A stretch of 32,065 bases of DNA from Ilumatobacteraceae bacterium (GTDB lineage: Bacteria > Actinomycetota > Acidimicrobiia > Acidimicrobiales > Ilumatobacteraceae): positions 11,211 through 43,275 of the forward strand of contig JBBANV010000006.1 in NCBI GenBank assembly GCA_040401775.1. Reading direction: 5' to 3'. The notes beneath the pieces are model-generated. The model was given only the letters and a program-made list of their open reading frames with translations. It was not told where the DNA came from and ran no database searches. This document shows, in pieces, positions 14,213-30,420 of the stretch. The position numbers were made by a program, and so were the translations under genes. Numbering within the stretch: position 1 is the stretch's first letter; each line of letters begins with the position of its first letter.

Positions 14213-14225
14213 CCATCGCTGCACC

Positions 14226-14240: not shown

Positions 14241-14247
14241 AAGGCGA

Positions 14248-14259: not shown

Positions 14260-14265
14260 TTTCGC

Positions 14266-15252: not shown

Positions 15253-15271
15253 CGCCGACTCGTCGTAGTGA

Positions 15272-16141
15272 CTAGCCCTGCGGGGTGCCAAAGGGCGTGT
15301 AGCCGCGACCGGCAACTCCAGGTCGACACGCAAACAGCGATCCAGCCGACGGATTGGCGTGTCGACGTGCGTCATCAAGATCAACCGTTGCTGACGTGAT
15401 GTAGAGGGTGCGCAAGTCGACACCGCCAAACGCACAGCTCGTGATCCAACCTCCGGGCACGTCGATACGACAATCGATCTCACCACTCGGGCTCAGTCGA
15501 ACGACGCCGCCTCCGTCCCAGAGTGCGACCCAGATGCCACCTTCCATGTCCACCGACACGCCGTCGGGCAACACATCGAACGTGGCGATGGTGCGCTCGG
15601 AGACGGGGAATCCGTTGTCGTCAAGACTCAGCTCATCAACCGTGCGATGCAACGAATCGACGTGGTAGCACTTGGATCCGTCGGGACTCCAATCGATGCC
15701 GTTCGAAAGTGCGCGGCCCGAACGAACACGCCGCACGAAGCCCGAGTCATCAACGCAGAACACGCCGGCTCGATGTTCGCCGCTGCGGTCGACCGTGCCA
15801 ATCCACAGACGTCCATGCGGATCGCATCGTCCGTCATTGGCTCGGCCGTCCCCATCGGGTGGTAGTTCGGCCAAGACCGATCCAATCGCTCCCGAGGCAT
15901 TCAACGTGCCCACCTCGAGACCGGACACCGCCAACAACTCACCAGTACTCGTCGGTACCACCACGCTGGTCGGCGAACTCACCACTACTTCTTCATGCCG
16001 TCCGTCGCCGTACAAACGATGCAGAAGACGGCCGTCGATATCCAACCACAACAAGGTGGAGGTGGCGGCGTCCCACGTGACCCCCTCACCCAACAGGCTC
16101 CGACACTCCACCACCAGGTCGACCGACATCTCAGCCCCCAT
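15272..16141 (-). CDS. SMP-30/gluconolactonase/LRE-family lactonase
   Basis: 289 aa. It has LGEGVTWD near the N-terminus, repeated beta-propeller-like DG/DP blades, and NGIDWSPDG. ATG at 16129 (MSVDL...) is an alternative start. Confidence 0.85.
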   Translation of the reverse strand: MGAEMSVDLVVECRSLLGEGVTWDAATSTLLWLDIDGRLLHRLYGDGRHEEVVVSSPTSVVVPTSTGELLAVSGLEVGTLNASGAIGSVLAELPPDGDGRANDGRCDPHGRLWIGTVDRSGEHRAGVFCVDDSGFVRRVRSGRALSNGIDWSPDGSKCYHVDSLHRTVDELSLDDNGFPVSERTIATFDVLPDGVSVDMEGGIWVALWDGGGVVRLSPSGEIDCRIDVPGGWITSCAFGGVDLRTLYITSATVDLDDARRHANPSAGSLFACRPGVAGRGYTPFGTPQG

Positions 16142-16193
16142 GCTTACCGCCCCACAGTGGCCCTGGTAATTGGCGATTCATATGTGCTAGAAA

Positions 16194-16205
16194 AGATTAT
16201 AAACT
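16194..16205. promoter_or_regulatory. Dyad site D: AGATTA|TAAACT (inside the exact 13-mer AAAGATTATAAAC, 16192-16204)
   Basis: It lies in the divergent gap between the lactonase (-) and the ADH-UxuA operon (+). The minus strand reads TATAAT/TAATCT and the plus strand reads TAAACT. The 13-mer is identical to the one at 18750-18762. Confidence 0.55.
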
Positions 16206-16226
16206 CGTCACCACAAGGGGGACACC

Positions 16227-17318
16227 ATGTTGATCAACGCACCAGTGCTCATGAAGCCGAAGGAAAAGATGCAAATGCTCGAGCTCGAGCTCGACGAGCC
16301 ACGGTTCGGCGAGGTTCGCGTCAAGATGGTGGCCAGCGGCGTATGCCACAGCTGTCTCCACGCCTACGACGGCTCGCATACCGGCATCCCGATGCCAATC
16401 GTGCTCGGTGACGAGGGTTCGGGCATCGTCGATGCCGTTGGAGCCGGCGTTTCGCACCTCCAAAAGGGCGACCACGTCGTCATCTCTTGGGCACCGTCGT
16501 GCAACAGTTGCAAGTACTGCAACCTCGGGTTCCCTGCACTGTGCCTCAACACGCCAGCGATCGGCAAGACCACCGGTGACGTCACGATGTTCCACCACAA
16601 AGGCGAAGATGTGTACCACTACGGTCCTGCAACCTACGGCTCGTACATCGTGGTGCCGGAGTCCGCAGCAGTGAAGATTCGCAAAGACTTCCCACTCGAG
16701 GCCGCAGCACTCATTGGCTGCTCGGTCGCCACGGGCTTTGGATCCGCAGTCAACAGCGCCGGATTGCGCGCCGGTCAGAGCGTCGCCGTCTTTGGTTGCG
16801 GTGGTGTCGGACTCAACGCCATCCAAGGTGCCGTTGCCACGGGTGCCTATCCGATCATCGGTGTCGACGTACTCGACTCCAAGCTCGACATGGCACGTCA
16901 CTTTGGTGCAACCCACACCATCAACTTGGCAAAGCAAGATCTTGAGGCCGAGGTGAAGAAACTCACCGGCAGTGGTGTCGACGCTTCGATCATCGCGGTC
17001 GGTAGCAGCAAGGCGATGGAACAGGGGCTTACGATTCTCGCCAAGCAAGGCATCGAGGTAATCCTCGGTCTGCCTGGTCAGGGCGAGAAGTTCCCCGTCG
17101 ACCCATGGTTGCTGATGGGTGGCGAGCGCAGAATCGTCGGATCCCGTTACGGCACCAGCAATCCACTCGTGGAATTCCCCAAGCTCGTCGAACTTGCCAT
17201 GTCGGGACGAATCAAGATCGAAGAGCTCGTGACGAAGCGTTACGACCTCGACGAAGCCGATGAGGCGTTCCGATCACTGGCTGCCGGCGAGCAGGCGCGC
17301 GGACTCATCGTCTTTTAG
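16227..17318 (+). CDS. Zinc-type medium-chain alcohol/polyol dehydrogenase (MDR family)
   Basis: 363 aa, ATG after AAGGGGGA. Contains GVCHSCLH (catalytic Cys), the structural-Zn motif CNSCKYCNLGFPALC, and the Rossmann motif VFGCGGVGLNA. The usual GHE motif reads GDE here. Confidence 0.86.
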   Translation: MLINAPVLMKPKEKMQMLELELDEPRFGEVRVKMVASGVCHSCLHAYDGSHTGIPMPIVLGDEGSGIVDAVGAGVSHLQKGDHVVISWAPSCNSCKYCNLGFPALCLNTPAIGKTTGDVTMFHHKGEDVYHYGPATYGSYIVVPESAAVKIRKDFPLEAAALIGCSVATGFGSAVNSAGLRAGQSVAVFGCGGVGLNAIQGAVATGAYPIIGVDVLDSKLDMARHFGATHTINLAKQDLEAEVKKLTGSGVDASIIAVGSSKAMEQGLTILAKQGIEVILGLPGQGEKFPVDPWLLMGGERRIVGSRYGTSNPLVEFPKLVELAMSGRIKIEELVTKRYDLDEADEAFRSLAAGEQARGLIVF

Positions 17319-17320
17319 CC

Positions 17321-18283
17321 ATGAAACTGGCCTCGGTACTCACACCACTCTCCGACGAGAACCTCACGCTGGCTGCGCAGTGCGGCGTCGACCAAATCGT
17401 GGTTCGCTATCCCGGGCCGGATCTCAGTGAGTTCAATCGAATGCAGCAGCGAATCCGCTCGTTCGGCATGGAGATTGGCGTCGTGGAGGGTTACCTACCG
17501 ATCGATCGCATCAAGCTGGGAACCGATGACGGCACCGATCTGAAGGCGATGAAGGCGCTGATCCGACATCTGTCGGATCTCGACATTCGCTTGGTGTGCT
17601 ACAACTTCATGGCCGGAACCGACTGGATTCGCACCTCCGTCGACACGCTCGAACGAGGTGGCTCGAAGGTGACCGCCTTCCGTCTGGCCGATCTCGACAA
17701 AGCACGAATTCCCGGACGTCCGGCGTTTCGAGCCGAACTCGAACCGGGCGCCAAGCGTCCGGAGTTGTGGAAGAACCTGCAGAACTTCCTGGAAGAAATC
17801 ATCCCAGTTGCCGAGGATGCAGGCGTCGTCATGGCCATGCACCCCGACGATCCACCACTACCGCAACTTCTCGGTAACGACCGAATCATGCACGACGTTG
17901 CCGGCTTCGAGCGCCTCGTGGAAATCGTCAAGTCTCCGTCGAACAAGATTGCGTTCTGTCAGGGTTCGTTCTCCGAGATGGGTATCGACATTCCAGCGAC
18001 GATCCGACGAATCGGTTCGCACATTGCCTACGTTCACTATCGCGACGTGGTCGGTACCGCCGACGACTTCCGCGAAAGCTGGCAGGACAACGGGCAAACC
18101 GACATGGCAGAGGCGATGCGCGCATATCGCGAGGTGGGCTTCTCGGGGCCGATGCGTCCCGACCATGTGCCCCAGATGATCGGTGAGGATGACGGCGAGC
18201 CTGGTTACACGATGCTCGGGCGACTCTTTGCCTTCGGTTACATCCGTGGCATGATGCACGCCACCGAAAAGCACTGCTGCTAA
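17321..18283 (+). CDS. uxuA: UxuA-family (mannonate dehydratase-like) sugar-acid dehydratase, short form
   Basis: 320 aa. Blocks match my recollection of E. coli UxuA: VCYNFMAGTDWIRT, IIPVAEDAGVVMAMHPDDPP, PMRPDHVPQM and PGYTMLGRL. It starts 2 nt after the ADH stop. Confidence 0.8.
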   Translation: MKLASVLTPLSDENLTLAAQCGVDQIVVRYPGPDLSEFNRMQQRIRSFGMEIGVVEGYLPIDRIKLGTDDGTDLKAMKALIRHLSDLDIRLVCYNFMAGTDWIRTSVDTLERGGSKVTAFRLADLDKARIPGRPAFRAELEPGAKRPELWKNLQNFLEEIIPVAEDAGVVMAMHPDDPPLPQLLGNDRIMHDVAGFERLVEIVKSPSNKIAFCQGSFSEMGIDIPATIRRIGSHIAYVHYRDVVGTADDFRESWQDNGQTDMAEAMRAYREVGFSGPMRPDHVPQMIGEDDGEPGYTMLGRLFAFGYIRGMMHATEKHCC

Positions 18284-18284: not shown

Positions 18285-18701
18285 TCACCGTTGCGGTCGC
18301 CTCACTGCGATCACGTCGATCTCGAACTTGAGTGCGACAGAGAGACAACTGGTAATCGTCGTTCGTGCCGGTAGCGGGGAAGAGAAGTACTCCCGGTACA
18401 GCAAGTTGTACTGCGGCAAATGGGCGGGATCGTGGACGTAACTCGTGACTCGTACGACGTCGCCGAGATCGAGCCCGACCGCAGCGAGGATTCGCTGGAC
18501 GTTCGACATCGACCGCCTCATTTCCTGTTCAAAGTCCCCGCTCACAATCACACCCTGGTCGTCCACCGAGGCCTGACCAGAAACGAAAACGAAACCGTTC
18601 GCTTCAACGGCGGCGGAGAAGGGAAGATGGCTCGAGATTGGTGTTTGAAGTGGTGACCAGCCACGGATGACGTTCGTAGTGGTTGGTGGTGTCTCTGACA
18701 T
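18285..18701 (-). CDS. RidA/YjgF/UK114-family reactive-intermediate (enamine/imine) deaminase
   Basis: I chose the start at ATG 18701 (MSETPPTT...), giving about 138 aa. The ORF-track extension to 18821 adds a non-conserved 40 aa that runs through the promoter dyad. Core motifs: FVFVSGQ, VRVTSYV, PARTTI. Confidence 0.82.
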   Translation of the reverse strand: MSETPPTTTNVIRGWSPLQTPISSHLPFSAAVEANGFVFVSGQASVDDQGVIVSGDFEQEMRRSMSNVQRILAAVGLDLGDVVRVTSYVHDPAHLPQYNLLYREYFSSPLPARTTITSCLSVALKFEIDVIAVRRPQR

Positions 18702-18751
18702 CAGCAGTTTCCATTTCTCTTTGCTCGTAGCTGGTTGTTGGGTATCATCAA

Positions 18752-18763
18752 AGATTATAAACA
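18752..18763. promoter_or_regulatory. Dyad site E: AGATTA|TAAACA (inside the 18-bp near-palindrome CAAAGATTATAAACATTG, 18749-18766)
   Basis: It lies in the divergent gap between RidA (-) and the D-aminoacylase (+). The minus strand reads TATAAT/TAATCT. The plus half TAAACA is the only one of 14 half-sites that fails TANNNT. Confidence 0.5.
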
Positions 18764-18856
18764 TTGCAGCCCGCACCACGGCCAACGACATGTGCAACAG
18801 CGCATCCCTCCGTGCCGCCAAACGTCGGTTGATCTTGCAGCCGGAAGGTCGTTCAC

Positions 18857-20458
18857 ATGATGCATGATGTCGTCATCAACGATGTGACCATCGTGGACGG
18901 AACGGGTGCCGCCCCGACACGTGGTCACGTCGCCGTAAAGGACGGGGTCATCACTGCGATCACGACGGATGCCGTGCCGGCGGCACACGACATGCAGGCA
19001 CGCACCGTCATCAGTGGTGCAGGCAAGGTGCTCTGTCCCGGGTTCATCGACATCCACACCCACTCCGATCTCACGTTGATCGAGGATGGTCGTGGCGAAA
19101 GCAAGTTGCGCCAAGGCGTCACCACCGAGGTGGTCGGAAACTGTTCGTTCTCGGCCTTCCCCATCGAACCCCGTCACCTCGACCTTCATGCGGATCACCT
19201 TGCGCGCGCCACCGCACCGATTCGACCCTGGTGGACCGACCTCGATGGGTATGCCGCTGCCCTCCACGACGAGGGAATCGCCCTCAACGTCGCGCCACTG
19301 GCGGGGCATGGCACGCTGCGCGTTGCTGCAATGGGTGTCGACCAACGACGTGCGACGGCATCGGAACTTGCACGGATGGTCTCGGACCTCCACACGGCGT
19401 TGGAGCAAGGCGCCTTCGGTATGAGCACTGGTCTCACCCATGTTCCAAGTGCCTACGGCGACTTCGACGAGGTGATTGCCCTTGCCGAGGTGCTGGCCGA
19501 ACATCGCGCTCTGTACGCAACACACTGTCGCGCGGCCGAGCCTGATGAACGTGCTGCCGTTGCTGAAACCATCGAACTCGGACGCCGAACCGGTGTCACC
19601 GTCGAATTCAGTCATCTCGCCATCAACCGACCGGATCGTTGGGGCACGGGCGACGAACTCCTCCGGATGTTCGATGATGCCCGCAAGGAAGGTATCGACA
19701 TCTTCTTTGACGTGTATCCGTACGACGCGTCGTCATCGTCACTCACGCAGTACTTGCCGCCTTGGTTGCAGGCTGGCGGCACCGAAGCCATGCGAGCACG
19801 CCTCGTGGATGGCGACCAGCGAGCACGAGCGCTCTCCGACATGACTGAGGGTTGGTTCAACGGGATTCCCTGGCTCTGGGATCGATTCCAAATCTCGAGC
19901 ACACCTGATGGTCGTTATGTTGGTGAAACACTCGAATCCGTATCGCAATCGTTGCGGATTGCCCCAGACGAACTCACACTTCGATTGTGCGAGGAGTACG
20001 GCAACGAAATTCAGGTGGTGCTGTTCTACCGAACCGAGGCCGACGTTTCGGCATTCTTACGACACCCGCTGGCCGTCGTTGGATCCGACGGCAACGCGAT
20101 CTCGCTCAATCAACCATGCGCACGTCCGCACCCCCGCAATTTCGGAACCTTTCCGCGTGTGCTGGGTCGTTATGTTCGCGACCGAGGCGTGCTCGAGCTC
20201 GCTGACGCCGTCCGCAAGATGACCTACGAACCGGCACGACGTCTTGGCATCCACGACCGCGGTCGAATCGCCACCGGACTAGCCGGCGACCTCGTGCTCC
20301 TCGATCCACAACAGGTCATCGATCGTGCCGACTTCGGTAAGGCTCCCGAGGGGCCGGTAGGTATATCTCACGTACTCGTCAATGGTCGCGTCGTGCTCAA
20401 CGATGGCATCATTTCCGATGAGCGCCCTGGTCGCGTATTACAACACGCTTCGCGCTAG
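18857..20458 (+). CDS. N-acyl-D-amino-acid deacylase (D-aminoacylase) family amidohydrolase
   Basis: 533 aa. The N-terminus DVVINDVTIVDGTGAAPTRGHVAVKDGVITAI and the metal motif GFIDIHTHSD are typical of the D-aminoacylase family. GGAAGG lies upstream of the ATG. Confidence 0.85.
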   Translation: MMHDVVINDVTIVDGTGAAPTRGHVAVKDGVITAITTDAVPAAHDMQARTVISGAGKVLCPGFIDIHTHSDLTLIEDGRGESKLRQGVTTEVVGNCSFSAFPIEPRHLDLHADHLARATAPIRPWWTDLDGYAAALHDEGIALNVAPLAGHGTLRVAAMGVDQRRATASELARMVSDLHTALEQGAFGMSTGLTHVPSAYGDFDEVIALAEVLAEHRALYATHCRAAEPDERAAVAETIELGRRTGVTVEFSHLAINRPDRWGTGDELLRMFDDARKEGIDIFFDVYPYDASSSSLTQYLPPWLQAGGTEAMRARLVDGDQRARALSDMTEGWFNGIPWLWDRFQISSTPDGRYVGETLESVSQSLRIAPDELTLRLCEEYGNEIQVVLFYRTEADVSAFLRHPLAVVGSDGNAISLNQPCARPHPRNFGTFPRVLGRYVRDRGVLELADAVRKMTYEPARRLGIHDRGRIATGLAGDLVLLDPQQVIDRADFGKAPEGPVGISHVLVNGRVVLNDGIISDERPGRVLQHASR

Positions 20459-21651
20459 CGCGTGCCCGTCAGGCGCACCTCGACACCAGGACGATTCACG
20501 ATGTCGGCCTGAAGTGCCGCACCGATTCCTGCTCGTGTCGGCACATGGTATTCACCGTGATGCAACGGTTGGAGTTCGTCGACGAACTCTGCATACACGG
20601 AATGAAGGTATGCGCGAACGACTTCCTGGTACAACACGTTCGGCGAACTGAAGGAAAGATGAATTCCAGCGAGCAACGTGAACGGTCCGGTGCAATCGTG
20701 GAACGTCACCGGCAGTCGTTTGGCGTCGGCAAGGCTCACGATGCGACGTGACTCGGTGATGCCACCACACCATGTGGGATCGATCATGATGATGTCTGCT
20801 GCCTGCTGATCGATGATCGGTGCGTATTCGAAACGGGTAATGAGGTACTCACTGGCGAGCAGCGGAATGGTGGTGCTTTGCTTCAACTCGAGCAGCGCAG
20901 CGGGATCATCGGCCAGGATGAGGTCTTCTATCCACGCGGGGCGGACGGCCTCCAAGGCGTTGGCAATCGTCTTGGCGGCTTCCACCGACCACAATCCGTG
21001 ACCCTCGGCCATGATCTCGATGCTCGAGCCGACGGCGGAGCGAATCTTCTCGAAAACCTCCACGCCAGCACGAAGTTCGGCAGGATCGATGGAAGTCGCA
21101 CCCGGTACTCGGGCCATCCGATCGAACGGCCAAATCTTCATACCGGCAAACCCTTGCTCCACCAGTTCAGCGGCGAGTTCGCCTGGCCTATGCAGGAATG
21201 CCTCGTAGTCCTCGTACATTCCACGTGCCACCGGCGACGAGCCAATCCGCCAACTCTTTCCGTAACTTGGGCCAGCGCAGGTGTTGTAGGTGGCAACTCG
21301 CTCCTTCGTTGGTCCGCCCAACATCACATGCAACGGCACGTTCGCTGCGAGTGCACATGCATCCCAAACGGCGACATCAATGGCCGAGAGTGCACGCATC
21401 TCGAGCCCGCGGCCACCAAAGCGAGCCGCTGACCGATAGCCGTGCTCCCAGAGGGCTTCCGGTGAACACCCTCCATGAGCAAGGAGTCGCGGTGCCAAGA
21501 ACTCATGGACGTACTCACTCACTGCACGAGGCGTGTAATAGGTCTCGCCGTGACCGACCACTCCCGAATCCGTGTACACGCGGACGAAGACGATCTCGGG
21601 CAACGGTGACTGGTCACCCGGAAGAATCGTTTCGATGCCGACGATGTTCAC
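20455..21651 (-). CDS. Enolase-superfamily (mandelate racemase/muconate lactonizing enzyme family) acid-sugar dehydratase-like protein
   Basis: 398 aa with a GTG start at 21651. The capping-domain N-terminus reads IVGIETILPG...VFVRVYTDSGVVGHGETY. Barrel motifs: KIWPFD, MAEGHG, IEDL. Confidence 0.82.
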   Translation of the reverse strand: MNIVGIETILPGDQSPLPEIVFVRVYTDSGVVGHGETYYTPRAVSEYVHEFLAPRLLAHGGCSPEALWEHGYRSAARFGGRGLEMRALSAIDVAVWDACALAANVPLHVMLGGPTKERVATYNTCAGPSYGKSWRIGSSPVARGMYEDYEAFLHRPGELAAELVEQGFAGMKIWPFDRMARVPGATSIDPAELRAGVEVFEKIRSAVGSSIEIMAEGHGLWSVEAAKTIANALEAVRPAWIEDLILADDPAALLELKQSTTIPLLASEYLITRFEYAPIIDQQAADIIMIDPTWCGGITESRRIVSLADAKRLPVTFHDCTGPFTLLAGIHLSFSSPNVLYQEVVRAYLHSVYAEFVDELQPLHHGEYHVPTRAGIGAALQADIVNRPGVEVRLTGTR

Positions 21652-21693
21652 GTGAGGGTCCGAAGGTTCAACGAGGGCAACGAAGATCCCGAA

Positions 21694-22695
21694 CTACTTG
21701 ACCACATAATGATCGGCGCCCTCGGTACCGGCGGCGCCAGCAAGGATGGAGTCGATCTCCCGAAGATCTGTTGGAGAGAGTGACCAGTCGACACCGGCGA
21801 CATTGTCATCAACTTCGGCCGGAGTAATCATGCCGGCAAGACACGTGCTCACGAAATCGTGCATCGCAACCCAGGCGATTGCCAACTGCGGAAGCGTTCG
21901 CGATCGAGATTCCGCAAACTGCTTCAGACGTTGTGCCATGGCAATGTTCTTGGTCAGATTCTCACCGAGGAAGAGCGGCAATCCGAAGACATCTCCTTTT
22001 GAACGCCAGTCACCGCTGGCGAAGGATGTCTCTGAGTTCCATGTTCCGGAAAACAGACCGTGGCACAGCGAACCATAGGTCATGAATCCGATGTCGTTGG
22101 CCGACACGTAGGGGACCATCGTTGCTTCCGTTCGGCGGTCGAGCATGTTGTATCCAGACTGTTGCACTTGAATGCTGCCGTGTTTGCGATACTCGTCGAG
22201 TTGTTCGGTGGTGAAGTTGGAAACTCCCACCGCACGGACCTTTCCGGAGTCCACGAGTTCGCGAAATGCCGTCATTGATCCGGCTGGCGAGCCGTCTGGA
22301 TCGGGCACATGAATGAGGAGAACGTCGATGAAATCGGTACGTAGACGTTGCAGACTTTGTTCTGCTGATGCAAGGATCGCCTCGCGATTCGATGTCGTCA
22401 CCCACTGTTCCTTCGAATAGTCCCAATGCACTGCACATTTGGTAACGACGACTGCATCCTCACGTCGCGAGCCGAGTGCCGTCCCGAGGATCGATTCGGC
22501 GCGACCGTTGCCGTAGGCAGGGGCCGTGTCGAACAATGTGACTCCCAAATCGAGTGCTCGATGAATCGCAGCAATGGCAGCGTCATCGTCGACCTTGCCG
22601 TAGTCACCTGCATGTTGCGTACCGCCGATCGGCCACATCCCAAAACCCAGAAGTGACACTTCGATTCCCGTGCTTCCGAGCTGTCGATACTTCAT
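21694..22695 (-). CDS. Aldo-keto reductase
   Basis: I chose the start at ATG 22695 (MKYRQLGSTGIEVSLLGFGMW), which is preceded by AAAAGGGG. The family core reads DTAPAYGNG ... the conserved Lys in VVTKCAVHWD. The 7-aa longer ORF-track start is less likely. Confidence 0.86.
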   Translation of the reverse strand: MKYRQLGSTGIEVSLLGFGMWPIGGTQHAGDYGKVDDDAAIAAIHRALDLGVTLFDTAPAYGNGRAESILGTALGSRREDAVVVTKCAVHWDYSKEQWVTTSNREAILASAEQSLQRLRTDFIDVLLIHVPDPDGSPAGSMTAFRELVDSGKVRAVGVSNFTTEQLDEYRKHGSIQVQQSGYNMLDRRTEATMVPYVSANDIGFMTYGSLCHGLFSGTWNSETSFASGDWRSKGDVFGLPLFLGENLTKNIAMAQRLKQFAESRSRTLPQLAIAWVAMHDFVSTCLAGMITPAEVDDNVAGVDWSLSPTDLREIDSILAGAAGTEGADHYVVK

Positions 22696-22720
22696 AAAGC
22701 CCCTTTTTGACGTCATGGCA

Positions 22721-22732
22721 ACTCTATAACAT
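22721..22732. promoter_or_regulatory. Dyad site F: ACTCTA|TAACAT
   Basis: It lies in the divergent gap between the AKR-enolase operon (-) and MlrC paralog 2 (+). The minus half TAGAGT predicts a roughly 19-nt leader with an SD for the AKR. The plus half TAACAT ends 7 nt before in-frame TTG 22740. It shares the 10-mer AACTCTATAA with the reverse complement of site A. Confidence 0.55.
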
Positions 22733-22739
22733 TCATTTT

Positions 22740-24272
22740 TTGCGAAGTCACCCTAGAGTTGCCTGCATTAACGCGTCATCTCGACATCTTCGTGTTGCCC
22801 TCACGGGTTTTCATCACGAGTCCAACACGTTCGCACCTGTACCTGCATCGCTCGAGCGATTCATGGCGGCCGGTCCGGTGGAAGAGGACGCCCTCATTCA
22901 CATGTACGGCGAATCTCAGGCCACCCTCGGTGGTTTTCTCGAGATTCGCTCACTCCCCGACCTGACGGTACGACCCCTCTTTCATGCAGATCTCAATCCC
23001 ATGGGCACGATCACCCGGGAGGCATTCGAAGCTCTCGTTGGGCGGATGCTCGAACGACTTGCGAGTGAGGGACCATGGGACGTCGTTCTGCTCGCGCTCC
23101 ACGGTGCAGCAGTTGCTGAGCACCAGCCTGATGCCGACGGGGAAATCATTGCGCGAGTTCGTCAACTCGTCGGCAAGGACGTGGTGATCGGCGTTGCACT
23201 CGACATGCACGCAAATGTGTCCGAGCGTATGGTGCACAACAGCACGGTGATCAATGCCTACCTCACCAACCCCCACGTCGACCCACGGGCCCGTGCACGT
23301 CAAGTCGCCGACCTCGCCCTCGCTGCGGCACGAAAGGAAGTTCAGCCGACGACGGCCTTCGTTCCGATTCCGGCAGCCATCAACATCCTCCGACAAGGCA
23401 CATCCGACTGGCCGATGTCGCATCTCGTGAGTGTCGCCAACGAAATACAGCAGCGCCAGGGAGTCTTGTCGGTGAGCGTTGTCGAAGGATTCCCGTACGC
23501 GGACGTCAATGAACTCGGAATGTCGTTCATCGTCATCACCGACAACAATCGCCCCCTGGCCGACCAATTGGCGAAGTCGCTTGCCAACGAAGCCTGGAGG
23601 ATGCGCAACGACTTCGTCGGCGACGGAGTCGATCTTGAAACGGCGCTGAATCGAGCGGCTGCCGCGCAACGTGGACCCATCGTCCTCCTCGACGTTGGCG
23701 ACAATGTGGGGGGTGGAAGTCCCGCCGACTCCACTCACGTGCTTGCGGCAGCTCAACGCTTGGGAATCGGAGGTCTGTTTCACTCACTATGCGACCCTGA
23801 AAGTGCCCAGGCATGTCACGCTGCCGGCGCCGGCGCCCGGGTCGACCTTCATGTCGGCGCCAAGACGGATGCGCTCCACGGTTCACCCGTGCACATCACC
23901 GGCGTCGTCAAACACGTCGATGATGGGCGATTCGAGGACACCGGAGTAACGCACGGAGGATTTCGCTTCTTCAACGCAGGTCCACGCGCACTCGTGCACA
24001 CCGACGACGACCACTACGTCCTCCTCAACTCGCGTCCGATGGGCAACACCAGCCGCGCCGAGTTGACGAGCGCTGGTCTCGTTCCAACCGACGTCAAGAT
24101 CATCGTTGCAAAGGGTGTGCACTCGCCGCGTGGCGCGTTCGAGCCGATCGCTGCCGAACTGATTCAACTCAATACACCGGGTTGCACCAGTGCCGACCTG
24201 TCGACGTTGCACTACGACCTTCGACGACGACCGATGTTTCCGTTCGAGCCCGACGCCACTTTCTCGGCGTAG
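22740..24272 (+). CDS. MlrC-like M81-family metallopeptidase, paralog 2 (start codon uncertain)
   Basis: The conserved N-terminus LRVALTGFHHESNTFAPVP aligns with MRVALIHVMQETDTFNPVP of paralog 1, but the equivalent codon is CTT. In-frame candidate starts are TTG 22740, TTG 22707 and ATT 22767. None has an SD. Confidence 0.75.
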   Translation: MRSHPRVACINASSRHLRVALTGFHHESNTFAPVPASLERFMAAGPVEEDALIHMYGESQATLGGFLEIRSLPDLTVRPLFHADLNPMGTITREAFEALVGRMLERLASEGPWDVVLLALHGAAVAEHQPDADGEIIARVRQLVGKDVVIGVALDMHANVSERMVHNSTVINAYLTNPHVDPRARARQVADLALAAARKEVQPTTAFVPIPAAINILRQGTSDWPMSHLVSVANEIQQRQGVLSVSVVEGFPYADVNELGMSFIVITDNNRPLADQLAKSLANEAWRMRNDFVGDGVDLETALNRAAAAQRGPIVLLDVGDNVGGGSPADSTHVLAAAQRLGIGGLFHSLCDPESAQACHAAGAGARVDLHVGAKTDALHGSPVHITGVVKHVDDGRFEDTGVTHGGFRFFNAGPRALVHTDDDHYVLLNSRPMGNTSRAELTSAGLVPTDVKIIVAKGVHSPRGAFEPIAAELIQLNTPGCTSADLSTLHYDLRRRPMFPFEPDATFSA

Positions 24273-24273
24273 T

Positions 24274-24285
24274 TCGTACCGACGA
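24274..24285. other. Palindrome TCGT-ACCG-ACGA in the convergent gap (14-mer TTCGTACCGACGAG)
   Basis: It sits between the MlrC-2 stop (24272) and the PLP-enzyme stop (24295). 12 of 14 positions are identical to CTCGTGCCAACGAG at 26522-26535. It may be a short RNA hairpin or a protein site. Confidence 0.3.
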
Positions 24286-24294
24286 GAAGACCGA

Positions 24295-25536
24295 CTAGAA
24301 GAAGGTTCGAGCCACCTCGACTACGCGGTACTCGTCGTCGACGATGGGAAGTGCCCGCCATTTGTCGAACGTGGTGCAGGGATGCGAGATTCCAAGTCCC
24401 ACGAGGTCACCGACTGCAACGTCGTCCGCAGCATCGACATCCAGGTAGGTGTGCTGATCATCGACTCGTACCGCACGTCCAATTGCCGACCACGCTTCCA
24501 CTCCCGAGCCTCCCCGCCGTCGACGCTTCTTGGCAATGGGGAGCAACCCGTCGGTAGAAACGTCACGTTTACCCACACCCACGACCACTCGCGTGGGTTC
24601 CGGACGCGACAACACCACGCCCCATACCTCAAGAGCAGCCTGAAAGACTTCGCCGAGTTCTCGCGGTGCCGCACCGAGTGGAGAAAGCTCGTGAATCACG
24701 CCGTCGTCATGGCTGATGTAGCACCCACTGCGTACCACGACTCGTTCGGGCATCGTCGTGTTGGCCCGGTACAGCTTTGCGACGACTCGCTCAAAAAAGA
24801 CGCTGCCACCTGCGCTGAGGATGACTTCGTTGCCGTCGGTGACGAGTCGTTGCAGGATCAGTTCGTCCACCAGCCGACGCAATTCGGACAGGAAGTCATC
24901 GACGCGTTCCTCGGCGGATTGCGACTCGGTTGCCGAGATGATTCCTTCGAAGCCCGAAGCCCCAACCAGGCGAAGTGTCGAGCAGGATGCCACCTTCCGC
25001 GCAACCACAAGTGCTTCAGCAACGCTGCGACATCCCGTGCGTCCGTGTGACACACCAAGTTCTACGAGCACGGGAACCTGCACACCCACCGGCAGTGTGT
25101 CGAGACCTTCGTGGAGAAGGTTCACCGCATCCAAGGAATCGACACAGCAGTACACCTCGTGACCTCGTCGAGTGGCCATTGCCAACCACGCGATGTCCCC
25201 TGGTGCAACCACCTCGTTGGCAATGAACACTCGGGGTACTCCGTGATCGACCATCGTCTTTGCTTGAAACGTGGTTGCTGCAGTGATCGCCCATGCCCCA
25301 TCCGCCAGCTGCAGACGAAAAAGCTCGGGGGACATCGTCGTCTTGCCATGAGGTGCGAAGGAAACACTTCGACGGCGACAATAGGCCGCGAAACTGGCAC
25401 TGTTGTTCGCCAGAGCCGAACGCAGGAGCACTGCCGATGGCATGAGTACATCGGCATCGAAAATCGACCAACCGACGGAACGCCTCCGCCGCACGGGAAA
25501 ACCCTTGCGCTCAACTTTTCGGTTCAGCACGTCCAT
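24295..25536 (-). CDS. Fold-type-III PLP enzyme, alanine-racemase-N plus D-serine-dehydratase-like domains (DSD1 / D-threonine aldolase / 'amino acid deaminase' family)
   Basis: I chose ATG at 25536 (MDVLNRK...), which overlaps the upstream stop as ATGA (25535-25538). The 89-aa ORF-track extension lies inside the upstream gene. The PLP-lysine motif is FAPHGKTT and the C-terminal motif is GISHPCTTFDKW. Confidence 0.72.
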   Translation of the reverse strand: MDVLNRKVERKGFPVRRRRSVGWSIFDADVLMPSAVLLRSALANNSASFAAYCRRRSVSFAPHGKTTMSPELFRLQLADGAWAITAATTFQAKTMVDHGVPRVFIANEVVAPGDIAWLAMATRRGHEVYCCVDSLDAVNLLHEGLDTLPVGVQVPVLVELGVSHGRTGCRSVAEALVVARKVASCSTLRLVGASGFEGIISATESQSAEERVDDFLSELRRLVDELILQRLVTDGNEVILSAGGSVFFERVVAKLYRANTTMPERVVVRSGCYISHDDGVIHELSPLGAAPRELGEVFQAALEVWGVVLSRPEPTRVVVGVGKRDVSTDGLLPIAKKRRRRGGSGVEAWSAIGRAVRVDDQHTYLDVDAADDVAVGDLVGLGISHPCTTFDKWRALPIVDDEYRVVEVARTFF

Positions 25537-26465
25537 CAACCAAGTGTGATTCGTCCGTCGATGGTTACCTTCGACACTGGTGCACCAGTTGGCGCGAACG
25601 GTGTGATGGACATCGTCGTGCTGCGCGACTCGCCCGGAGCAAGATCGATGGCTTGACCACGGCGGCGAGCCTCGGCCAAACCGATTCCCGGCCATGTGCA
25701 GGCTGGTTCGATGGCCACCAACGATGCGCGCCCGTAAAACGGGAACCCTGTGCTGCCATTCTCGCGCCACAGCCACACGTGCGGAAAATCTCTCGCCTCC
25801 CATGCCATGGCAACTCCGATGTCCGAACGGCGAAGCGCAGCCCAGCCATGCTCGAGGTCGGTGATGAAGTGCACGCTTTCCTGCGGCGACTGGTCGTCGA
25901 CCACATCAAGACGCGTCGACCCGGCAAGCGGCCAGACTCCCAACGACGTACCTGATGCGTCGGCAACGTTCGTTGCGGGTAGGTCGATGAGATCACCATC
26001 TTGCGTACGGAATGCAGGATGCTCGCCCCAGATGAACGACGTGGATTCCGTCGACTGATTGTGGACCGTCGTGGCGATTTCTACTCGATCAGGATTCGTT
26101 CGAAGTGAAACTTCACGCGTCACGGTGATGGGCAACCGCGTTCCGGCGCGGACTCTGACCATCGACTCGGTTTGCGCCACCACATCCACGTGAGTTCTCG
26201 ACCACTCCCCGTGGAATGGAAGATTCACTCCGTCCACCTCACACTCGGGGCCGGCATTGGGTATCAGAAACTGCCATCCACCCCGATATTCCGAAAGCCA
26301 GTCATGTCGATGATTGCCATAGGCAGTACTCCTTCCAACGGCGACGGGACTGTCCCAGTCGTAATACGCAAGAAGCTCTGTGGCACCCAGAGAAATTTGT
26401 GTGATTTCGGCCCCCAGGTGCTCATTGATTCGAACCGTCAGGTGGTCGTTCTGCAGGGTGATCAC
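25536..26465 (-). CDS. Galactose-mutarotase-fold (aldose 1-epimerase-like) protein
   Basis: I chose the start at GTG 26465 (VITLQNDHLTVRINEHLGAEITQI...), preceded by AAAGG. The family has a beta-sandwich fold, with LPFHGEW and WGEHPAF motifs typical of the aldose-epimerase superfamily. The ORF-track ATG at 26582 would run through the GntR gene start. Confidence 0.7.
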   Translation of the reverse strand: MITLQNDHLTVRINEHLGAEITQISLGATELLAYYDWDSPVAVGRSTAYGNHRHDWLSEYRGGWQFLIPNAGPECEVDGVNLPFHGEWSRTHVDVVAQTESMVRVRAGTRLPITVTREVSLRTNPDRVEIATTVHNQSTESTSFIWGEHPAFRTQDGDLIDLPATNVADASGTSLGVWPLAGSTRLDVVDDQSPQESVHFITDLEHGWAALRRSDIGVAMAWEARDFPHVWLWRENGSTGFPFYGRASLVAIEPACTWPGIGLAEARRRGQAIDLAPGESRSTTMSITPFAPTGAPVSKVTIDGRITLG

Positions 26466-26505
26466 GGCCGAACCTTTACTGTGGCTTTGGAAATTGGATG
26501 GTCGA

Positions 26506-26517
26506 ATCGTATAGCAT
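26506..26517. promoter_or_regulatory. Dyad site G: ATCGTA|TAGCAT
   Basis: It lies between the mutarotase-like gene (-) and the GntR operon (+). The minus half TACGAT predicts a roughly 34-nt leader with an SD. The plus half TAGCAT ends 7 nt before GTG 26525, which is leaderless geometry. Confidence 0.5.
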
Positions 26518-26520
26518 CTG

Positions 26521-26536
26521 CCTCGTGCCAACGAGG
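26521..26536. promoter_or_regulatory. 16-bp palindrome CCTCGT-GCCA-ACGAGG overlapping the GntR start codon (candidate autoregulatory operator)
   Basis: Perfect 6-bp arms. The inner TCGT-N4-ACGA resembles the GntR-family TnGT..ACnA operator rule. It sits immediately downstream of the predicted -10 and covers GTG 26525. Confidence 0.4.
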
Positions 26537-27232
26537 GGTCGTTCAGCAGTAAAAGGAAGTTCCACCCGAACTCCACGATCAAACGACAGTTCCGTCGCCC
26601 ATGTCGTCGAGCACCTTCGCCACGGGATCATCACCGGTCGCTATCGACGCGACTCCAAGATTCTGCCGAAGCAGATTGCAGAACGCTGCGGGACGAGCTT
26701 CATTCCGGTACGAGAGGCACTACGAATTCTCGAGGCCGAGGGCTTCATTCTGTTCCGCCACAATCGTGGCGCATGGGTGACGCCCGTCTCACTTGCCGAC
26801 CTGGAGGATCTCTACGACGTGCGAATCGCCATGGAGGCTGACGCAGTTGCCAAGAGCAAGCCATTCAGCGACGAGGCTCTGCACGACTTGCAGGCCCTCA
26901 TCGAGAAAATGTCTCTTGCGTACACCGACGACGACTCGAGTCGCGTGGTGAAGCTCAATCGCGACTTCCACTTCCGTATCTACGGCAACTGTGGCTCCGA
27001 GCGTCGCATACGAATCATCCGCCAATTGTGGATGCACGCCGAGCGCTACCAGCAGCTCTCACTCGAGGTTCGACATGATGCGGCGGATGACGAGCACAAG
27101 GCAATCGTCAACGCGCTCTCCGCGCGTGATCACGAACTTGCTGCCGAAGCGTTGCGTACTCACCTCATCACTACGGTCAGCCTCTTGAAAGCCGACTGGC
27201 AGAGAGTTGAACCCTCCACCGGTCTCAACTGA
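26525..27232 (+). CDS. GntR-family transcriptional regulator, FadR subfamily (FCD C-terminal domain)
   Basis: The wHTH region reads ILPKQIAERCGTSFIPVREALRILEAEGFI. FCD-like motifs are DFHFRIYGNCGS and EHKAIVNALSARDHELAAEALRTHL. The start is either GTG 26525 (my choice) or ATG 26498 (ORF track). Confidence 0.8.
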   Translation: MPTRGRSAVKGSSTRTPRSNDSSVAHVVEHLRHGIITGRYRRDSKILPKQIAERCGTSFIPVREALRILEAEGFILFRHNRGAWVTPVSLADLEDLYDVRIAMEADAVAKSKPFSDEALHDLQALIEKMSLAYTDDDSSRVVKLNRDFHFRIYGNCGSERRIRIIRQLWMHAERYQQLSLEVRHDAADDEHKAIVNALSARDHELAAEALRTHLITTVSLLKADWQRVEPSTGLN

Positions 27233-27233
27233 C

Positions 27234-28655
27234 GTGTCCACGACAATCAACTCGGGTCCGGGCTCCCGCGAGGACAACGGACAGCGCGAAGCAGGATTGC
27301 TCCGACTCGAGGAGCGGTTTGGCAAGCAAGCAACTCGGGGGCGTGATGTGCTTGCCCAACACTCCCACGACGAGAGCTTTCATCTCCCCGGCGAGCCGGA
27401 CCTCGTCATATTTGCCGAATCAACCGAGGATGTTGCCGACTGTCTGGCAATCTGCTCGAGCCATCTCATTCCTGTCATCCCCTTCGGTGTGGGAACTTCT
27501 CTCGAAGGTCACGTCAACGCGATCCATGGTGGAGTCTCGCTCGATCTTTCCCGAATGAACAAGGTCCTGCGAGTCAGCAGTGACGACCTCGACTGCACGG
27601 TTCAAGCCGGAGTGCTTCGCAAGCAACTCGCCAAGGAACTCGTGCCCTACGGTTTGTTCTTCCCGGTTGATCCGGGTGCTGATGCAACCATCGGAGGGAT
27701 GGCTGCTACCGGTGCATCGGGTACCACGACGGTGAAGTACGGCGCCATGCGCGAATTGGTGCTCTCGATGAAAGTCGTGCTCCCGAACGGTGCCGTCATC
27801 GAAACGGGTCGTCGCGCACGCAAGACCTCTGCCGGCTACGACCTCACCCATCTTTTTCTGGGATCAGAGGGCACCCTCGGCGTCATCACCGAGGTGTCGC
27901 TGCGCTTGTTCGGAATTCCCGAAGCGACCGCAGCGGCAACGGTGCAGTTCGAGGATCTCCAGTCAGCCGTCTCGGCGGTCATCGCCATCATCCAATTGGG
28001 CATCGGGGTAGCGCGAATCGAGCTGCTCGACAAAGCCGCAGTGGCATCGGTAAACGCCTACTCGAAAACCACACTTTCCGAGCAAAACATGCTTCTGTTG
28101 GAATTTCACGGTTCCGATGAAGTCGTCAAACACGAGGCCAAGCTGGCTGGCGAGATCCTCGCAGACCACGGCGGAACGGGATTCACCTTCAGCACCGATC
28201 AAGCCGAGAGAACGGTGCTCTGGCAGGCGCGTCACGATGCGGCGTGGGCGATCCGTGCACAACGCCCTGGTGCCCAAATCTTCGTCACGGATGTGTGTGT
28301 TCCAATCTCACGCCTTGCGGATTGCATCACCCAAACCCATGCCGATATCGCGGCGTCCGGAATCTTCGGACCGATCATCGGTCATGTCGGCGATGGCAAC
28401 TTCCACGTCATCGTCGTCGTCACACCCGACGACGCCGAAGAGATGCACCGAGTCGAGTCGTTCAACGAACGCCTCATCTCACGTGCTCTGGAGATGGGCG
28501 GTACCTGCACCGGTGAACACGGAATCGGCGTAGGAAAGATTCCTTACCTCGTTCGTGAGCTTGGCAACGACGCAGTATCACTCATGCGCTCGATCAAGAA
28601 GGCGGTCGATCCACTCGGACTCATGAACCCCGGGAAAGTAGTCGCCGAAGCATGA
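27234..28655 (+). CDS. FAD-linked oxidase (GlcD / D-lactate dehydrogenase family)
   Basis: The FAD_binding_4-type N-domain reads PDLVIFAESTEDVADCLAICSSHLIPVIPFGVGTSLEGH. The C-terminal motif is GTCTGEHGIGVGK. The start is uncertain: GTG 27234 (1 nt after the GntR stop) or TTG 27207 (ORF track). Confidence 0.84.
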   Translation: MSTTINSGPGSREDNGQREAGLLRLEERFGKQATRGRDVLAQHSHDESFHLPGEPDLVIFAESTEDVADCLAICSSHLIPVIPFGVGTSLEGHVNAIHGGVSLDLSRMNKVLRVSSDDLDCTVQAGVLRKQLAKELVPYGLFFPVDPGADATIGGMAATGASGTTTVKYGAMRELVLSMKVVLPNGAVIETGRRARKTSAGYDLTHLFLGSEGTLGVITEVSLRLFGIPEATAAATVQFEDLQSAVSAVIAIIQLGIGVARIELLDKAAVASVNAYSKTTLSEQNMLLLEFHGSDEVVKHEAKLAGEILADHGGTGFTFSTDQAERTVLWQARHDAAWAIRAQRPGAQIFVTDVCVPISRLADCITQTHADIAASGIFGPIIGHVGDGNFHVIVVVTPDDAEEMHRVESFNERLISRALEMGGTCTGEHGIGVGKIPYLVRELGNDAVSLMRSIKKAVDPLGLMNPGKVVAEA

Positions 28656-29509
28656 GATTGGTTCGATTGGGTGAACGTGGCAGTGAAATTCCTGGCGTGC
28701 AATTGTCGAATTCATCGAGCGTGCTCGATGCCCGACCGGTTACCGCCGACTTCGATTCAGAGTTCTTCGCCAGCAATGGAATCGAGCGACTCCGTGCCGC
28801 AGTGAAGAATGGTGAACTCGCGCCGCTTCGTGACGCCGGAATGCGAATTGGTGCACCAATTGCCAAGCCCGAAAAAATCGTGTGCATCGGTCTCAATTAT
28901 CGCAATCACGCACTTGAGTCGAACATGGAGGTGCCCAAGGAGCCAATCATCTTCATGAAGGCACCCAACACGATCGTTGGTCCTCACGATGACGTTTGGA
29001 TCCCACGGCAGTCACAGAAGACCGACTGGGAGATTGAACTTGCCGTGGTCATGGGGTCGGTGGCGTCGTATCTCCCGAGTCCGGATGATGCACTGGCTTG
29101 TGTTGCTGGATATGCGATATCGAACGACGTGTCGGAACGAGAGTTCCAGCTCGAACGCGGTGGCCAATGGGACAAGGGGAAGTCCTGCGCCACGTTCAAT
29201 CCCCTTGGTCCATGGCTCGTCACTGCAGACGAAATTCCCGATCCTCAGCAACTCGACATGTTCCTCGAGGTCAATGGCCAACGCGTGCAAAAGGAAAGTA
29301 CTTCCGACATGATCTTTTCGGTACGTCACCTCATTTGGTACGTCAGCCAGTTCATGGTTCTTGAACCCGGCGATGTGATCAACACGGGCACGCCTGCCGG
29401 AGTCGGGCTCGGCTTGCGTCCACCCCGGTATCTCTCGGCAGGAGACGAAATGCGACTTGGAATCGACGGTCTTGGCGAACAACGTTCGCGCGCCATTGCC
29501 ACTCCTTAG
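28652..29509 (+). CDS. Fumarylacetoacetate hydrolase (FAH) family protein (2-keto-acid hydratase / diketo-acid hydrolase type)
   Basis: 285 aa. The ATG overlaps the upstream stop as ATGA. Motifs: KIVCIGLNY, EIELAVV, ISNDVSERE, PGDVINTGTPAGVG. Confidence 0.86.
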   Translation: MRLVRLGERGSEIPGVQLSNSSSVLDARPVTADFDSEFFASNGIERLRAAVKNGELAPLRDAGMRIGAPIAKPEKIVCIGLNYRNHALESNMEVPKEPIIFMKAPNTIVGPHDDVWIPRQSQKTDWEIELAVVMGSVASYLPSPDDALACVAGYAISNDVSEREFQLERGGQWDKGKSCATFNPLGPWLVTADEIPDPQQLDMFLEVNGQRVQKESTSDMIFSVRHLIWYVSQFMVLEPGDVINTGTPAGVGLGLRPPRYLSAGDEMRLGIDGLGEQRSRAIATP

Positions 29510-29518
29510 CAGTCGCTG

Positions 29519-30418: not shown

Positions 30419-30420
30419 CG

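Follow-up and report, generated by a model that had tools for sequence, protein, structure and literature searches.

The closest described relative of the system discussed here is the ong cluster of Pseudoalteromonas prydzensis ACAM 620 (PMC9537276, PMC12017989). In this cluster OngB, an enzyme of D-aminoacylase fold, deacetylates N-acetyl-D-glucosaminate (GlcNAc1A), and OngC, a fold-type-III pyridoxal-phosphate (PLP) enzyme which also acts on D-Ser and D-Thr, converts D-glucosaminate (GlcN1A) to 2-keto-3-deoxy-gluconate (KDG). OngD is a RidA protein, and a KDG kinase (KdgK), a GH20 enzyme, an SSS transporter and an RpiR repressor round off the cluster; the role of OngC was shown by enzyme assay and that of OngD by gene deletion (PMC9537276). 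This report addresses a stretch of 32,065 nucleotides from an Ilumatobacteraceae bacterium (contig JBBANV010000006.1; the window, meaning the whole stretch that was analysed), in which genes for a D-aminoacylase-family enzyme, a RidA protein and a fold-type-III PLP enzyme lie close together. A preliminary description of this DNA had pointed to the Pseudoalteromonas route, as a D-aminoacylase-family deacetylase followed by a deaminase to KDG, and its account of that route was accurate.

We tentatively read these three genes as the core of a single catabolic island, controlled by a GntR/FCD regulator, in an uncultured freshwater bacterium of the Ilumatobacteraceae. The island would apply the chemistry of OngB, OngC and OngD to a substrate other than chitin oxidised by lytic polysaccharide monooxygenase (LPMO). 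The three genes are:

18285-18701, minus strand: RidA imine/enamine deaminase (PF01042, 4.5e-25)
18857-20458, plus strand: D-aminoacylase-family amidohydrolase of 533 residues, hereafter DAM (Amidohydro_3, 4e-21)
24295-25536, minus strand: fold-type-III PLP enzyme of 413 residues (D-ser_dehydrat domain)

A canonical ong cluster, complete with GH20, SSS transporter, KdgK and RpiR, was recovered from a P. shioyasakiensis megaplasmid (locus L009), its OngB matching the P. prydzensis structure 9kb1 (PpOngB) at 823 bits. The window and the ong cluster have the same three families in the same logical order, with the deacylase first, then the fold-III PLP ammonia-lyase and then RidA. As the ong type requires, the RidA gene is next to the deacylase gene; the divergent pairing that had been described is real, although the RidA start codon is uncertain and may be 18701 or lie upstream as far as 18821. 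Identities to the L009 proteins are only 31% for DAM against OngB, 34% for the PLP enzyme against OngC (full length, E 1e-80) and 33% for RidA against OngD, and the PAR(T) arginine motif is visible in RidA. The accessory genes differ as well. About 27 genes tile the whole window (open reading frames with Pfam annotation), and every gene named beforehand is present at its coordinates. Among them there is no kinase, aldolase or glycoside hydrolase, so the reported lack of a KDG kinase holds, and there is neither an LPMO nor any of the ong accessory genes GH20 (OngA), SSS transporter (OngIT), KdgK and RpiR (OngR), nor the TonB receptor. The window instead has a GntR/FCD regulator and a Dpp-type importer, and its conserved core contains two M81 amidases and a UxuA-like dehydratase.

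The PLP enzyme can be placed in the OngC/3gwq subfamily, because 3gwq is the best PDB match both of the window enzyme (1.5e-72, with D-Thr aldolases far behind at ~1e-18) and of the L009 OngC homologue (398 bits). The comparison with D-Thr aldolases and D-hydroxyaspartate enzymes, which had been proposed as a check, was run, and the enzyme is nearer to OngC/3gwq than to any of these. Its motifs are kept, namely Lys65 in APHGKTT and SHPC at residues 384-387, the latter conserved with OngC homologues. In this fold, His-x-Cys is typical of eliminating enzymes and His-x-Asp of aldolases, as in the structures of chicken D-serine dehydratase and D-Thr aldolase. At the level of sequence, a D-amino-acid ammonia-lyase reaction is well supported.

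The finer placement of the enzyme is less telling about its substrate. In a small neighbour-joining tree it forms a separate Acidimicrobiia branch, 34-41% identical to all other sampled members, and alike so to those from amino-acid, glycosaminoglycan-locus, SMP30/aldolase and ong contexts. In Pantoea, the OngC-type enzyme occurs with an amino-acid ABC system and RidA. On a B. pseudomallei plasmid (NZ_CP009155.1, 7908-12742; locus L042), an operon of OngC-type deaminase, D-aminoacylase, RidA, 2-dehydro-3-deoxygalactonokinase (KDGal kinase) and KDPGal aldolase sits in a PL8/GH88/KduD locus and looks like a galacto-configured ong relative tied to glycosaminoglycan use; its deacylase is nevertheless AfDam-like, with Phe193, Thr292 and Leu298. 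A Novosphingobium capsulatum plasmid (4984-10014; locus L043) carries SMP30, SDR, a VOC protein, RidA, an OngC-type deaminase and an HpcH-type aldolase without a deacylase, a set that may serve to degrade a free amino sugar oxidatively and without phosphorylation.

The deacylase departs much further from the ong type. The best PDB matches of DAM are the Bordetella N-acyl-D-Glu deacylase Bb3285 (3gip, 7.8e-77), AfDam (1m7j, 5.9e-63) and PpOngB (9kb1, 7.4e-62), and it is equidistant from BbDam, AfDam and OngB. DAM has the fold of AfDam and Bb3285, along with their HxH/Cys/His/His metal site and their catalytic Asp. In alignments with AfDam and BbDam the D-aminoacylase set of HxH, Cys96, His220, His250 and catalytic Asp366 is present, the motifs DIHTH, GNCS, ATHCR, FSHLA and GSDG align, and Asp368 is retained. 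Five residues, Tyr194, Lys254, Tyr285, Ser291 and Arg379, are reported as strictly conserved in OngB-like enzymes and D-aminoacylases, and in OngB the polyol of GlcNAc1A is bound by Glu226, Ser290, Ser292 and Gln298, with Ala193, Ala256 and Gly348 forming the lining of the pocket (PMC12017989). DAM keeps Tyr285, Ser291 and Arg379 of the carboxylate and acyl-carbonyl set, as do AfDam and Bb3285, but throughout its clade Tyr194 is replaced by His and Lys254 by Ala. Position 226 is Ala, 193 is Thr and 256 is Asn, four serines stand at 290-293, an equivalent of Gln298 is absent, and Gly348 is absent too. From the GlcNAc1A-binding residues Ala193, Tyr194, Glu226, Lys254, Ala256, Ser290-292 and Gln298 of OngB, DAM has only Ser290-292. 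Asn at 256, and Ser rather than Thr at 292, also separate it from AfDam and Bb3285, as does an insertion of 44 residues in the insertion domain. This insertion is common to long-form homologues of haloarchaea, Azospirillum, Clostridia and Dehalococcoidia, with which DAM groups, apart from PpOngB and the Psh and Vibrio OngB. There is a further insertion of two residues at Leu370. Both leucines that contact the acetyl methyl group, Leu116 and Leu370, appear to be replaced by polar residues, which is weak evidence, as the alignment is ambiguous here and two versions disagree (370 being N or I, and 116 L or H).

Among the best 150 representatives at 50% identity, 81 have the Tyr194/Glu226/Lys254/Thr292 signature; a further 20 or so differ at 292 but retain Tyr/Glu/Lys, so that roughly 100 are canonical at the three positions, unlike DAM. 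About a dozen clusters, the nearest to the window enzyme, have Ala254, mostly with Asn256 and Ser292. Lys254 and Glu226 are lost and Tyr194 mostly lost in this subfamily, whereas all three residues are retained in OngB, AfDam, BbDam and the majority of long-form relatives. DAM is best described as a member of a distinct, remodelled long-form subfamily and not as an OngB orthologue, and with the residues present it is unlikely to bind N-acetyl and free alpha-carboxylate groups canonically. On the question of orthology to the GlcNAc1A enzymes, which the preliminary description had raised, the PLP enzyme is a subfamily relative of OngC (34%, APHGK, SHPC) on a branch of its own, and the deacylase does not belong with OngB. 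Literature on D-aminoacylases in Acidimicrobiia or on the DAM subfamily was not found.

Ser292, which DAM has in common with OngB, was considered as a marker of beta-hydroxy or aldonate substrates and rejected, since the B. pseudomallei D-aminoacylase has Thr292 and Leu298 despite adjoining genes for an OngC-type deaminase, RidA and KDGal metabolism. Separately, the PDB entries 9g5m and 9gv8, labelled "amidohydrolase family protein", match OngB at 551 bits, far better than AfDam does, have the SASSSTLD loop of OngB, and may represent an uncredited OngB-type enzyme.

The other genes that tile the window, in order of position, are:

167-1864: M14 carboxypeptidase of 565 residues, without signal peptide
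1868-2467, minus strand: PQ-loop/SWEET-like (MtN3_slv) membrane protein of ~200 residues
2620-3915, plus strand: HemL-like class-III aminotransferase or aminomutase (PF00202)
3928-8720, minus strand: operon SDR2-SDR1-M81#1-IlvD/EDD (Pfam; NCBIfam NF004784, 887 bits)
5655-7265, minus strand: M81 (MlrC-type) metallo-amidase #1 of that operon (Pfam; true start probably downstream of 7265)
8876-14212, plus strand: Dpp/Gsi-type ABC importer, with lipoprotein substrate-binding protein (SBP) at 8876-10471, two permeases and two ATPases (Pfam, including SBP_bac_5)
14266-15252, plus strand: PhyH-family Fe(II)/2-oxoglutarate dioxygenase (PF05721)
15272-16141, minus strand: SMP30/gluconolactonase-family lactonase (PF08450, 3.1e-62)
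16227-17318, plus strand: MDR Zn-dependent dehydrogenase (ADH_N, ADH_zinc_N, Glu_dehyd_C)
17321-18283, plus strand: short UxuA-like aldonate dehydratase of 320 residues (PF03786, 9.1e-69)
20455-21651, minus strand: enolase-superfamily acid-sugar dehydratase (Pfam and NCBIfam)
21694-22716, minus strand: AKR (Pfam and NCBIfam)
22863-24272, plus strand: M81 (MlrC-type) metallo-amidase #2 (PF07364 and PF07171)
25536-26465, minus strand: DUF4432 protein (PF14486)
26498-31443, plus strand: operon of GntR/FCD regulator at 26498-27232, GlcD-like FAD oxidase, FAH-family hydrolase, AstE/DoeB-like deacylase and ThrC-like PALP protein (Pfam and NCBIfam)
31376-31984, minus strand: second PQ-loop/SWEET-like (MtN3_slv) membrane protein of ~200 residues

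The MlrC, AstE-like and ThrC-like additions that had been noted beforehand are all among them. An 18-bp palindromic operator-like motif, approximately cAAAnnTTATAnnnTTTg, with CAAAGATTATAAACATTG as an example of a site, was found in seven promoter regions:

2562-2579: SWEET-like gene / aminotransferase
8832-8849: SDR operon / SBP
14245-14262: upstream of PhyH
16191-16208: SMP30 / MDR dehydrogenase (ADH)-UxuA
18749-18766, no strand: RidA / DAM
22718-22735: AKR-enolase / M81
26503-26520: DUF4432-PLP / GntR operon

The IUPAC pattern AANNNTATANANT has 6 matches (5 distinct sites) against 0.02 expected. A position weight matrix retrieves exactly these seven sites in the window, against ~1 in simulated sequence, and with leave-one-out scoring every site ranks within the top 8 of ~32,000 positions. 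Seven genomes with a GntR gene (L011, L012, L013, L014, L015, L017 and L030) carry the motif in orthologous intergenic regions, and it is absent from six genomes without this gene, at least one of which (L020) has an IclR regulator instead. Because of this joint conservation and loss, the island is taken to be one regulon, in which the amidase, PLP and sugar-acid genes are co-regulated. The DUF4432 gene overlaps with its stop the start of the PLP gene at 25536, an arrangement of translational coupling, and co-occurs in L011, L012, L014-L017 and L030; a search for sequence relatives of DUF4432 in the PDB found none, and its fold may be mutarotase-like.

The arrangement is also conserved well beyond a single contig. 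Three metagenome assemblies, independent of one another and one of which carries a freshwater label, contain identical or near-identical contigs; named homologues point to Ilumatobacteraceae/Acidimicrobiia, and a megablast of 18285-26465 against plasmids gave zero matches. Through a scan of GTDB genomes, with neighbours mapped by tblastn, about 25 related Acidimicrobiia loci with DAM identities of 63-94% were obtained from lakes, rivers, soils and sponge symbionts. The near-constant neighbours of DAM are the UxuA-like gene upstream and the RidA gene (each in most loci), an M81 gene directly downstream (in most of the loci that reach past DAM) and a second M81 gene nearby. In the chromosome of Ca. 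Poriferisodalis (L020), the gap between the UxuA-like gene and DAM is 2 bp. Frequent partners are the OngC-type enzyme, in 13 of the ~25 loci, the aminotransferase, SMP30, PhyH (next to the class-III aminotransferase in L004 and L020) and the Dpp-type ABC system. The GntR/FCD-GlcD-FAH-AstE-ThrC-like operon is syntenic in L011, L012, L014, L017 and L030. The gene arrangement is not due to chance, given the contig in three assemblies, the synteny in ~25 loci and the common operator motif. The earlier statement that the deacylase, RidA and PLP genes are embedded among sugar-acid genes therefore reflects a real functional tie, as the UxuA-like gene adjoins the deacylase gene in most related loci and one operator covers both sets.

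The amidases and the importer bear upon the front end of the pathway. M81#2 (DUF1485 and MlrC_C domains; Pfam 6.2e-90 and 3.6e-46) matches 7ylq in the PDB (1.6e-43, 153 bits) and resembles MlrC, of peptidase family M81, in its two-domain architecture and D-x-H...H metal site. The catalytic residues are kept, as DMH...NPH aligns with DLH...YPH of 7ylq (MlrC Asp167, His169, His191). The bond that MlrC cleaves is of the acyl-(D-)Glu amide type, between Adda and (D-)Glu (PMC4810221). The similarity is nevertheless modest, mlrA, mlrB and mlrD are absent from the window, and microcystin is not likely to be the substrate, because the same genes are found in soil and sponge-symbiont genomes, where M81#1 is conserved too. 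We found no literature characterising M81 enzymes outside microcystin degradation. Five related loci have a gamma-glutamyltranspeptidase gene (PF01019, 8e-113) near DAM, which it adjoins in L023, L024 and L029, with an M81 gene intervening in L025 and L026. In L026 and L029 a second, canonical D-aminoacylase paralogue with Tyr194, Glu226 and Lys254 is also present.

The nearest PDB relatives of the SBP are GsiB/YliB, HbpA, DppA and AgaA, among them binders of glutathione, dipeptides and agropinic acid. Its longest open reading frame over-extends (8744-8875), and the likely start is Met 8876 with the lipoprotein signal ...AVAACGG, so that the operator at 8832 falls upstream of the gene. With identities of at most 27%, the SBPs encoded in the Haladaptatus, Azospirillum and Haloterrigena loci are too distant to separate a peptide from a sugar ligand. 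Outside the Acidimicrobiia, the long-form DAM of Haladaptatus stands together with a Ser/Thr dehydratase, an M81 gene and a peptide ABC system, and a second DAM copy adjoins dipeptide epimerases. On plasmid p3 of Azospirillum brasilense (8385-17196; L008), a long-form D-aminoacylase, RidA and a fold-III PLP enzyme of 352 residues are inserted between the permease and ATPase genes of a Dpp-type ABC operon. The M81 amidases, the Dpp/Gsi importer and the gamma-glutamyltranspeptidase of some genomes favour a peptide-like or N-acyl substrate for the front end.

Two described pathways were considered for this gene set and rejected. Ectoine/hydroxyectoine catabolism, prompted by the DoeB-like, EutB-like, class-III aminotransferase and PhyH genes, does not fit, as DoeA/EutC are absent, the transporter is of the wrong type and the scores are below cutoff; the HemL-like aminotransferase itself scores as GSA-aminomutase-like in NCBIfam, below cutoff. 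Murein-peptide recycling (MppA, MpaA, YcjG) does not fit either, as the enolase-superfamily protein is by type an acid-sugar dehydratase rather than a dipeptide epimerase and belongs to an accessory cassette.

The sugar-acid genes form the other half of the island. Oxidative routes for mannose, rhamnose and fucose use a dehydrogenase, a lactonase, an aldonate dehydratase, a 4-dehydrogenase of the 2-keto-3-deoxy acid and a FAH-type hydrolase. The window likewise has the MDR dehydrogenase, SMP30, the UxuA-like, IlvD/EDD and enolase-type dehydratases, SDRs, the FAH-family hydrolase and the GlcD-like oxidase. In contrast to such non-phosphorylative routes, the genes here are mixed with amidase and PLP-enzyme genes under common regulation, and none attains an equivalog cutoff. 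The UxuA-like protein scores 232 bits with Pfam UxuA, 206 bits with NF003027 (cutoff 191) and 150 with the TIGR00695 equivalog (cutoff 199.6), and its best match to PDB mannonate dehydratases is 2.6e-39. Its closest plasmid homologues are in haloarchaeal sugar loci, beside GH2/GH5 genes or SMP30 and an oxidoreductase, which supports its role as a genuine aldonate dehydratase. The MDR dehydrogenase gene is in an operon with it and is conserved in Ilumatobacteraceae loci, and SMP30 is conserved with sponge symbionts included. The IlvD/EDD member resembles L-arabinonate dehydratase (NF004784), and the FAH-family hydrolase resembles 2,4-didehydro-3-deoxy-L-rhamnonate hydrolase (NCBIfam). The AKR-enolase cassette (20455-22716) is an insertion between the deacylase and M81 genes and has an operator site of its own. 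Apart from the window, only its closest relatives L012, L014, L030 and L031 have the cassette; it is not in L011, and elsewhere M81 directly follows DAM.

The remaining genes lie at the edges. The two SWEET-like proteins, 42% identical to one another, bracket the island. The gene at 1868-2467 has a common operator-bearing promoter region with the aminotransferase gene, and the gene at 31376-31984, of which L011 holds an orthologue, is convergent with the PALP gene and overlaps its 3' end by 68 bp. The M14 carboxypeptidase has no signal peptide and is probably cytoplasmic; an operator upstream of its gene was not found within the window.

Gene identities, synteny and the common operator were observed directly, whereas we infer the substrate and every catalytic step of the scheme that follows. 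The Dpp/Gsi-type ABC system would import a small amide-linked, peptide-like conjugate. Cytoplasmic amidases would cut its amide bonds, these being the two M81 enzymes and the remodelled DAM, perhaps joined by the M14 and AstE-like enzymes. By the stereochemistry of these families and the nature of the partner enzyme, this would free a D-configured 2-amino-3-hydroxy acid, which could be D-Ser- or D-Thr-like or an amino-aldonate. The OngC/3gwq-type enzyme, by homology to OngC, would eliminate water and ammonia across the alpha and beta carbons, and RidA, by homology to OngD, would hydrolyse the enamine/imine to a 2-oxo(-3-deoxy) acid. The co-regulated non-phosphorylative enzymes would dispose of the carbon skeletons, perhaps including an aldonate-type moiety. 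Here an aldose may be turned into a lactone, then an aldonate and finally a 2-keto-3-deoxy acid by the MDR dehydrogenase, the SMP30 lactonase and the UxuA-like enzyme. From this acid, an SDR and the FAH-type hydrolase may produce pyruvate and a hydroxy acid, which the GlcD-like oxidase may then oxidise. We lean to this scheme because the triad is homologous to a verified cluster and the PLP enzyme has the lysine and HxC motifs of its subfamily; because DAM keeps its metal ligands and catalytic Asp, and M81#2 the site with which MlrC cuts acyl-(D-)Glu; because of the ligands bound by relatives of the SBP; and because of the UxuA-like/RidA/DAM/M81 core in ~25 loci, the Haladaptatus and Azospirillum contexts, the gamma-glutamyltranspeptidase in five loci and the seven operator sites.

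Several points weigh against it. Genes under one operator are co-regulated but need not serve one pathway. Nor is the triad universal, since the L023-L029 group has no PLP enzyme near DAM. The genomic surroundings of OngC-type enzymes, which are of the free-amino-acid kind in some cases and of the sugar kind in others, do not settle the specificity of these enzymes. With Lys254 and Tyr194 lost, even an N-acyl-D-alpha-amino acid is uncertain as the substrate class of DAM. Importers of the Dpp type also carry non-peptides, and we know of no candidate natural substrate that combines these parts. A more specific version of the scheme is that the conserved core (Dpp-type importer, two M81 enzymes, DAM, UxuA-like enzyme, SMP30, HemL-like aminotransferase, PhyH, OngC-type lyase and RidA) is a pathway for unrecognised dissolved amide conjugates of a sugar-acid or hydroxy-acid moiety with a D-configured amino(-hydroxy) acid, used by uncultured Acidimicrobiia of lakes, soils and sponges. 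We regard this version as possible, though on the doubtful side.

Among the rival explanations, salvage of D-amino-acid peptides or N-acyl-D-amino acids survives best, and we consider it somewhat unlikely. In this case the sugar-acid genes would be a separate pathway with a regulator in common. The sources could be peptidoglycan fragments, cyanobacterial or sponge non-ribosomal peptides or gamma-glutamyl peptides, and D-Ser and D-Thr would yield pyruvate and 2-oxobutyrate. The peptide-type ABC system, the M14, M81 and AstE-like genes and the gamma-glutamyltranspeptidase of relatives fit it, as do the haloarchaeal, Azospirillum and Pantoea contexts and the ability of OngC itself to deaminate D-Ser and D-Thr. 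Enzymes of the Bb3285 type reportedly hydrolyse L-Xaa-D-Glu dipeptides, as Cummings et al. are said to have found in 2009. The preliminary description had offered this as its alternative, and for the front end it is favoured. It leaves unexplained why the UxuA-like gene, operon-fused in L020, is the neighbour most tightly linked to DAM, why SMP30 is also in the core, and why the same operator precedes sugar-acid and amidase operons; moreover, the Lys by which the free alpha-carboxylate of a C-terminal D-residue is bound is gone from DAM.

The model first proposed for this DNA was an ong variant, in which DAM would deacetylate N-acetyl-D-glucosaminate or another 2-acetamido-aldonate, the PLP enzyme and RidA would give 2-keto-3-deoxy-gluconate, and SDR, FAH and other sugar-acid enzymes would consume this without a KDG kinase. 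What holds of it is the homology of the triad to OngB, OngC and OngD and the OngC-type PLP enzyme. The pocket of DAM has a polar character (T193, N256, Ser290-293), Ser292 being found in OngB too. The MDR dehydrogenase, SMP30 and the UxuA-like enzyme, whose gene is tightly linked to DAM, could take an aldose through an aldonate to KDG, the PLP subfamily has sugar-context precedents in Novosphingobium and B. pseudomallei, and SWEET-like genes flank the island. However, DAM falls outside the OngB clade, without Gln298, Glu226, Ala193, Ala256, Gly348 and the carboxylate-binding Lys254, and its acetyl-contacting leucines are apparently replaced. GH20, GH18, LPMO, SSS transporter, KdgK and RpiR recur in none of the ~25 related loci, the importer is of the Dpp/Gsi type, and the two conserved M81 amidases and the gamma-glutamyltranspeptidase are left without a role. 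The substrate is unlikely to be N-acetyl-D-glucosaminate derived from oxidised chitin, because the OngB determinants are lost, the chitin-type accessory genes are absent and M81 and Dpp partners are present instead, and we judge the model as a whole to be unlikely. Finally, a coincidental piling of unrelated catabolic genes into one genomic island is highly improbable, for although the enolase-AKR cassette is clearly a recent insertion and gene content differs among lineages, genomes from fresh water, soil and sponges retain the core synteny at DAM identities of 63-94% and the operator is common to, and conserved in, orthologous promoters.

Acidimicrobiia, such as the acIV/Ilumatobacteraceae and sponge symbionts like Ca. 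Poriferisodalis, are abundant, mostly uncultured bacteria whose diet is poorly known, and no literature on this Acidimicrobiia island was found. The island probably targets a common environmental compound, because it is conserved across freshwater, soil and sponge-associated members under one regulator. In the reading we prefer, the logic of deacylase, D-amino-acid lyase and RidA, lately discovered for oxidised chitin, would be reused here with a remodelled deacylase, and paired with M81 amidases whose only characterised relative degrades microcystin. If the pathway for unrecognised amide conjugates is real, the A254/N256 amidohydrolase subfamily and the non-microcystin M81 enzymes would have new substrate specificities. 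The identity of the SBP ligand or of the GntR effector would define a new catabolic route, and would also give functions to three poorly understood groups, namely M81 enzymes outside the mlr cluster, long-form A254/N256 D-aminoacylase-like enzymes and short UxuA-like enzymes.

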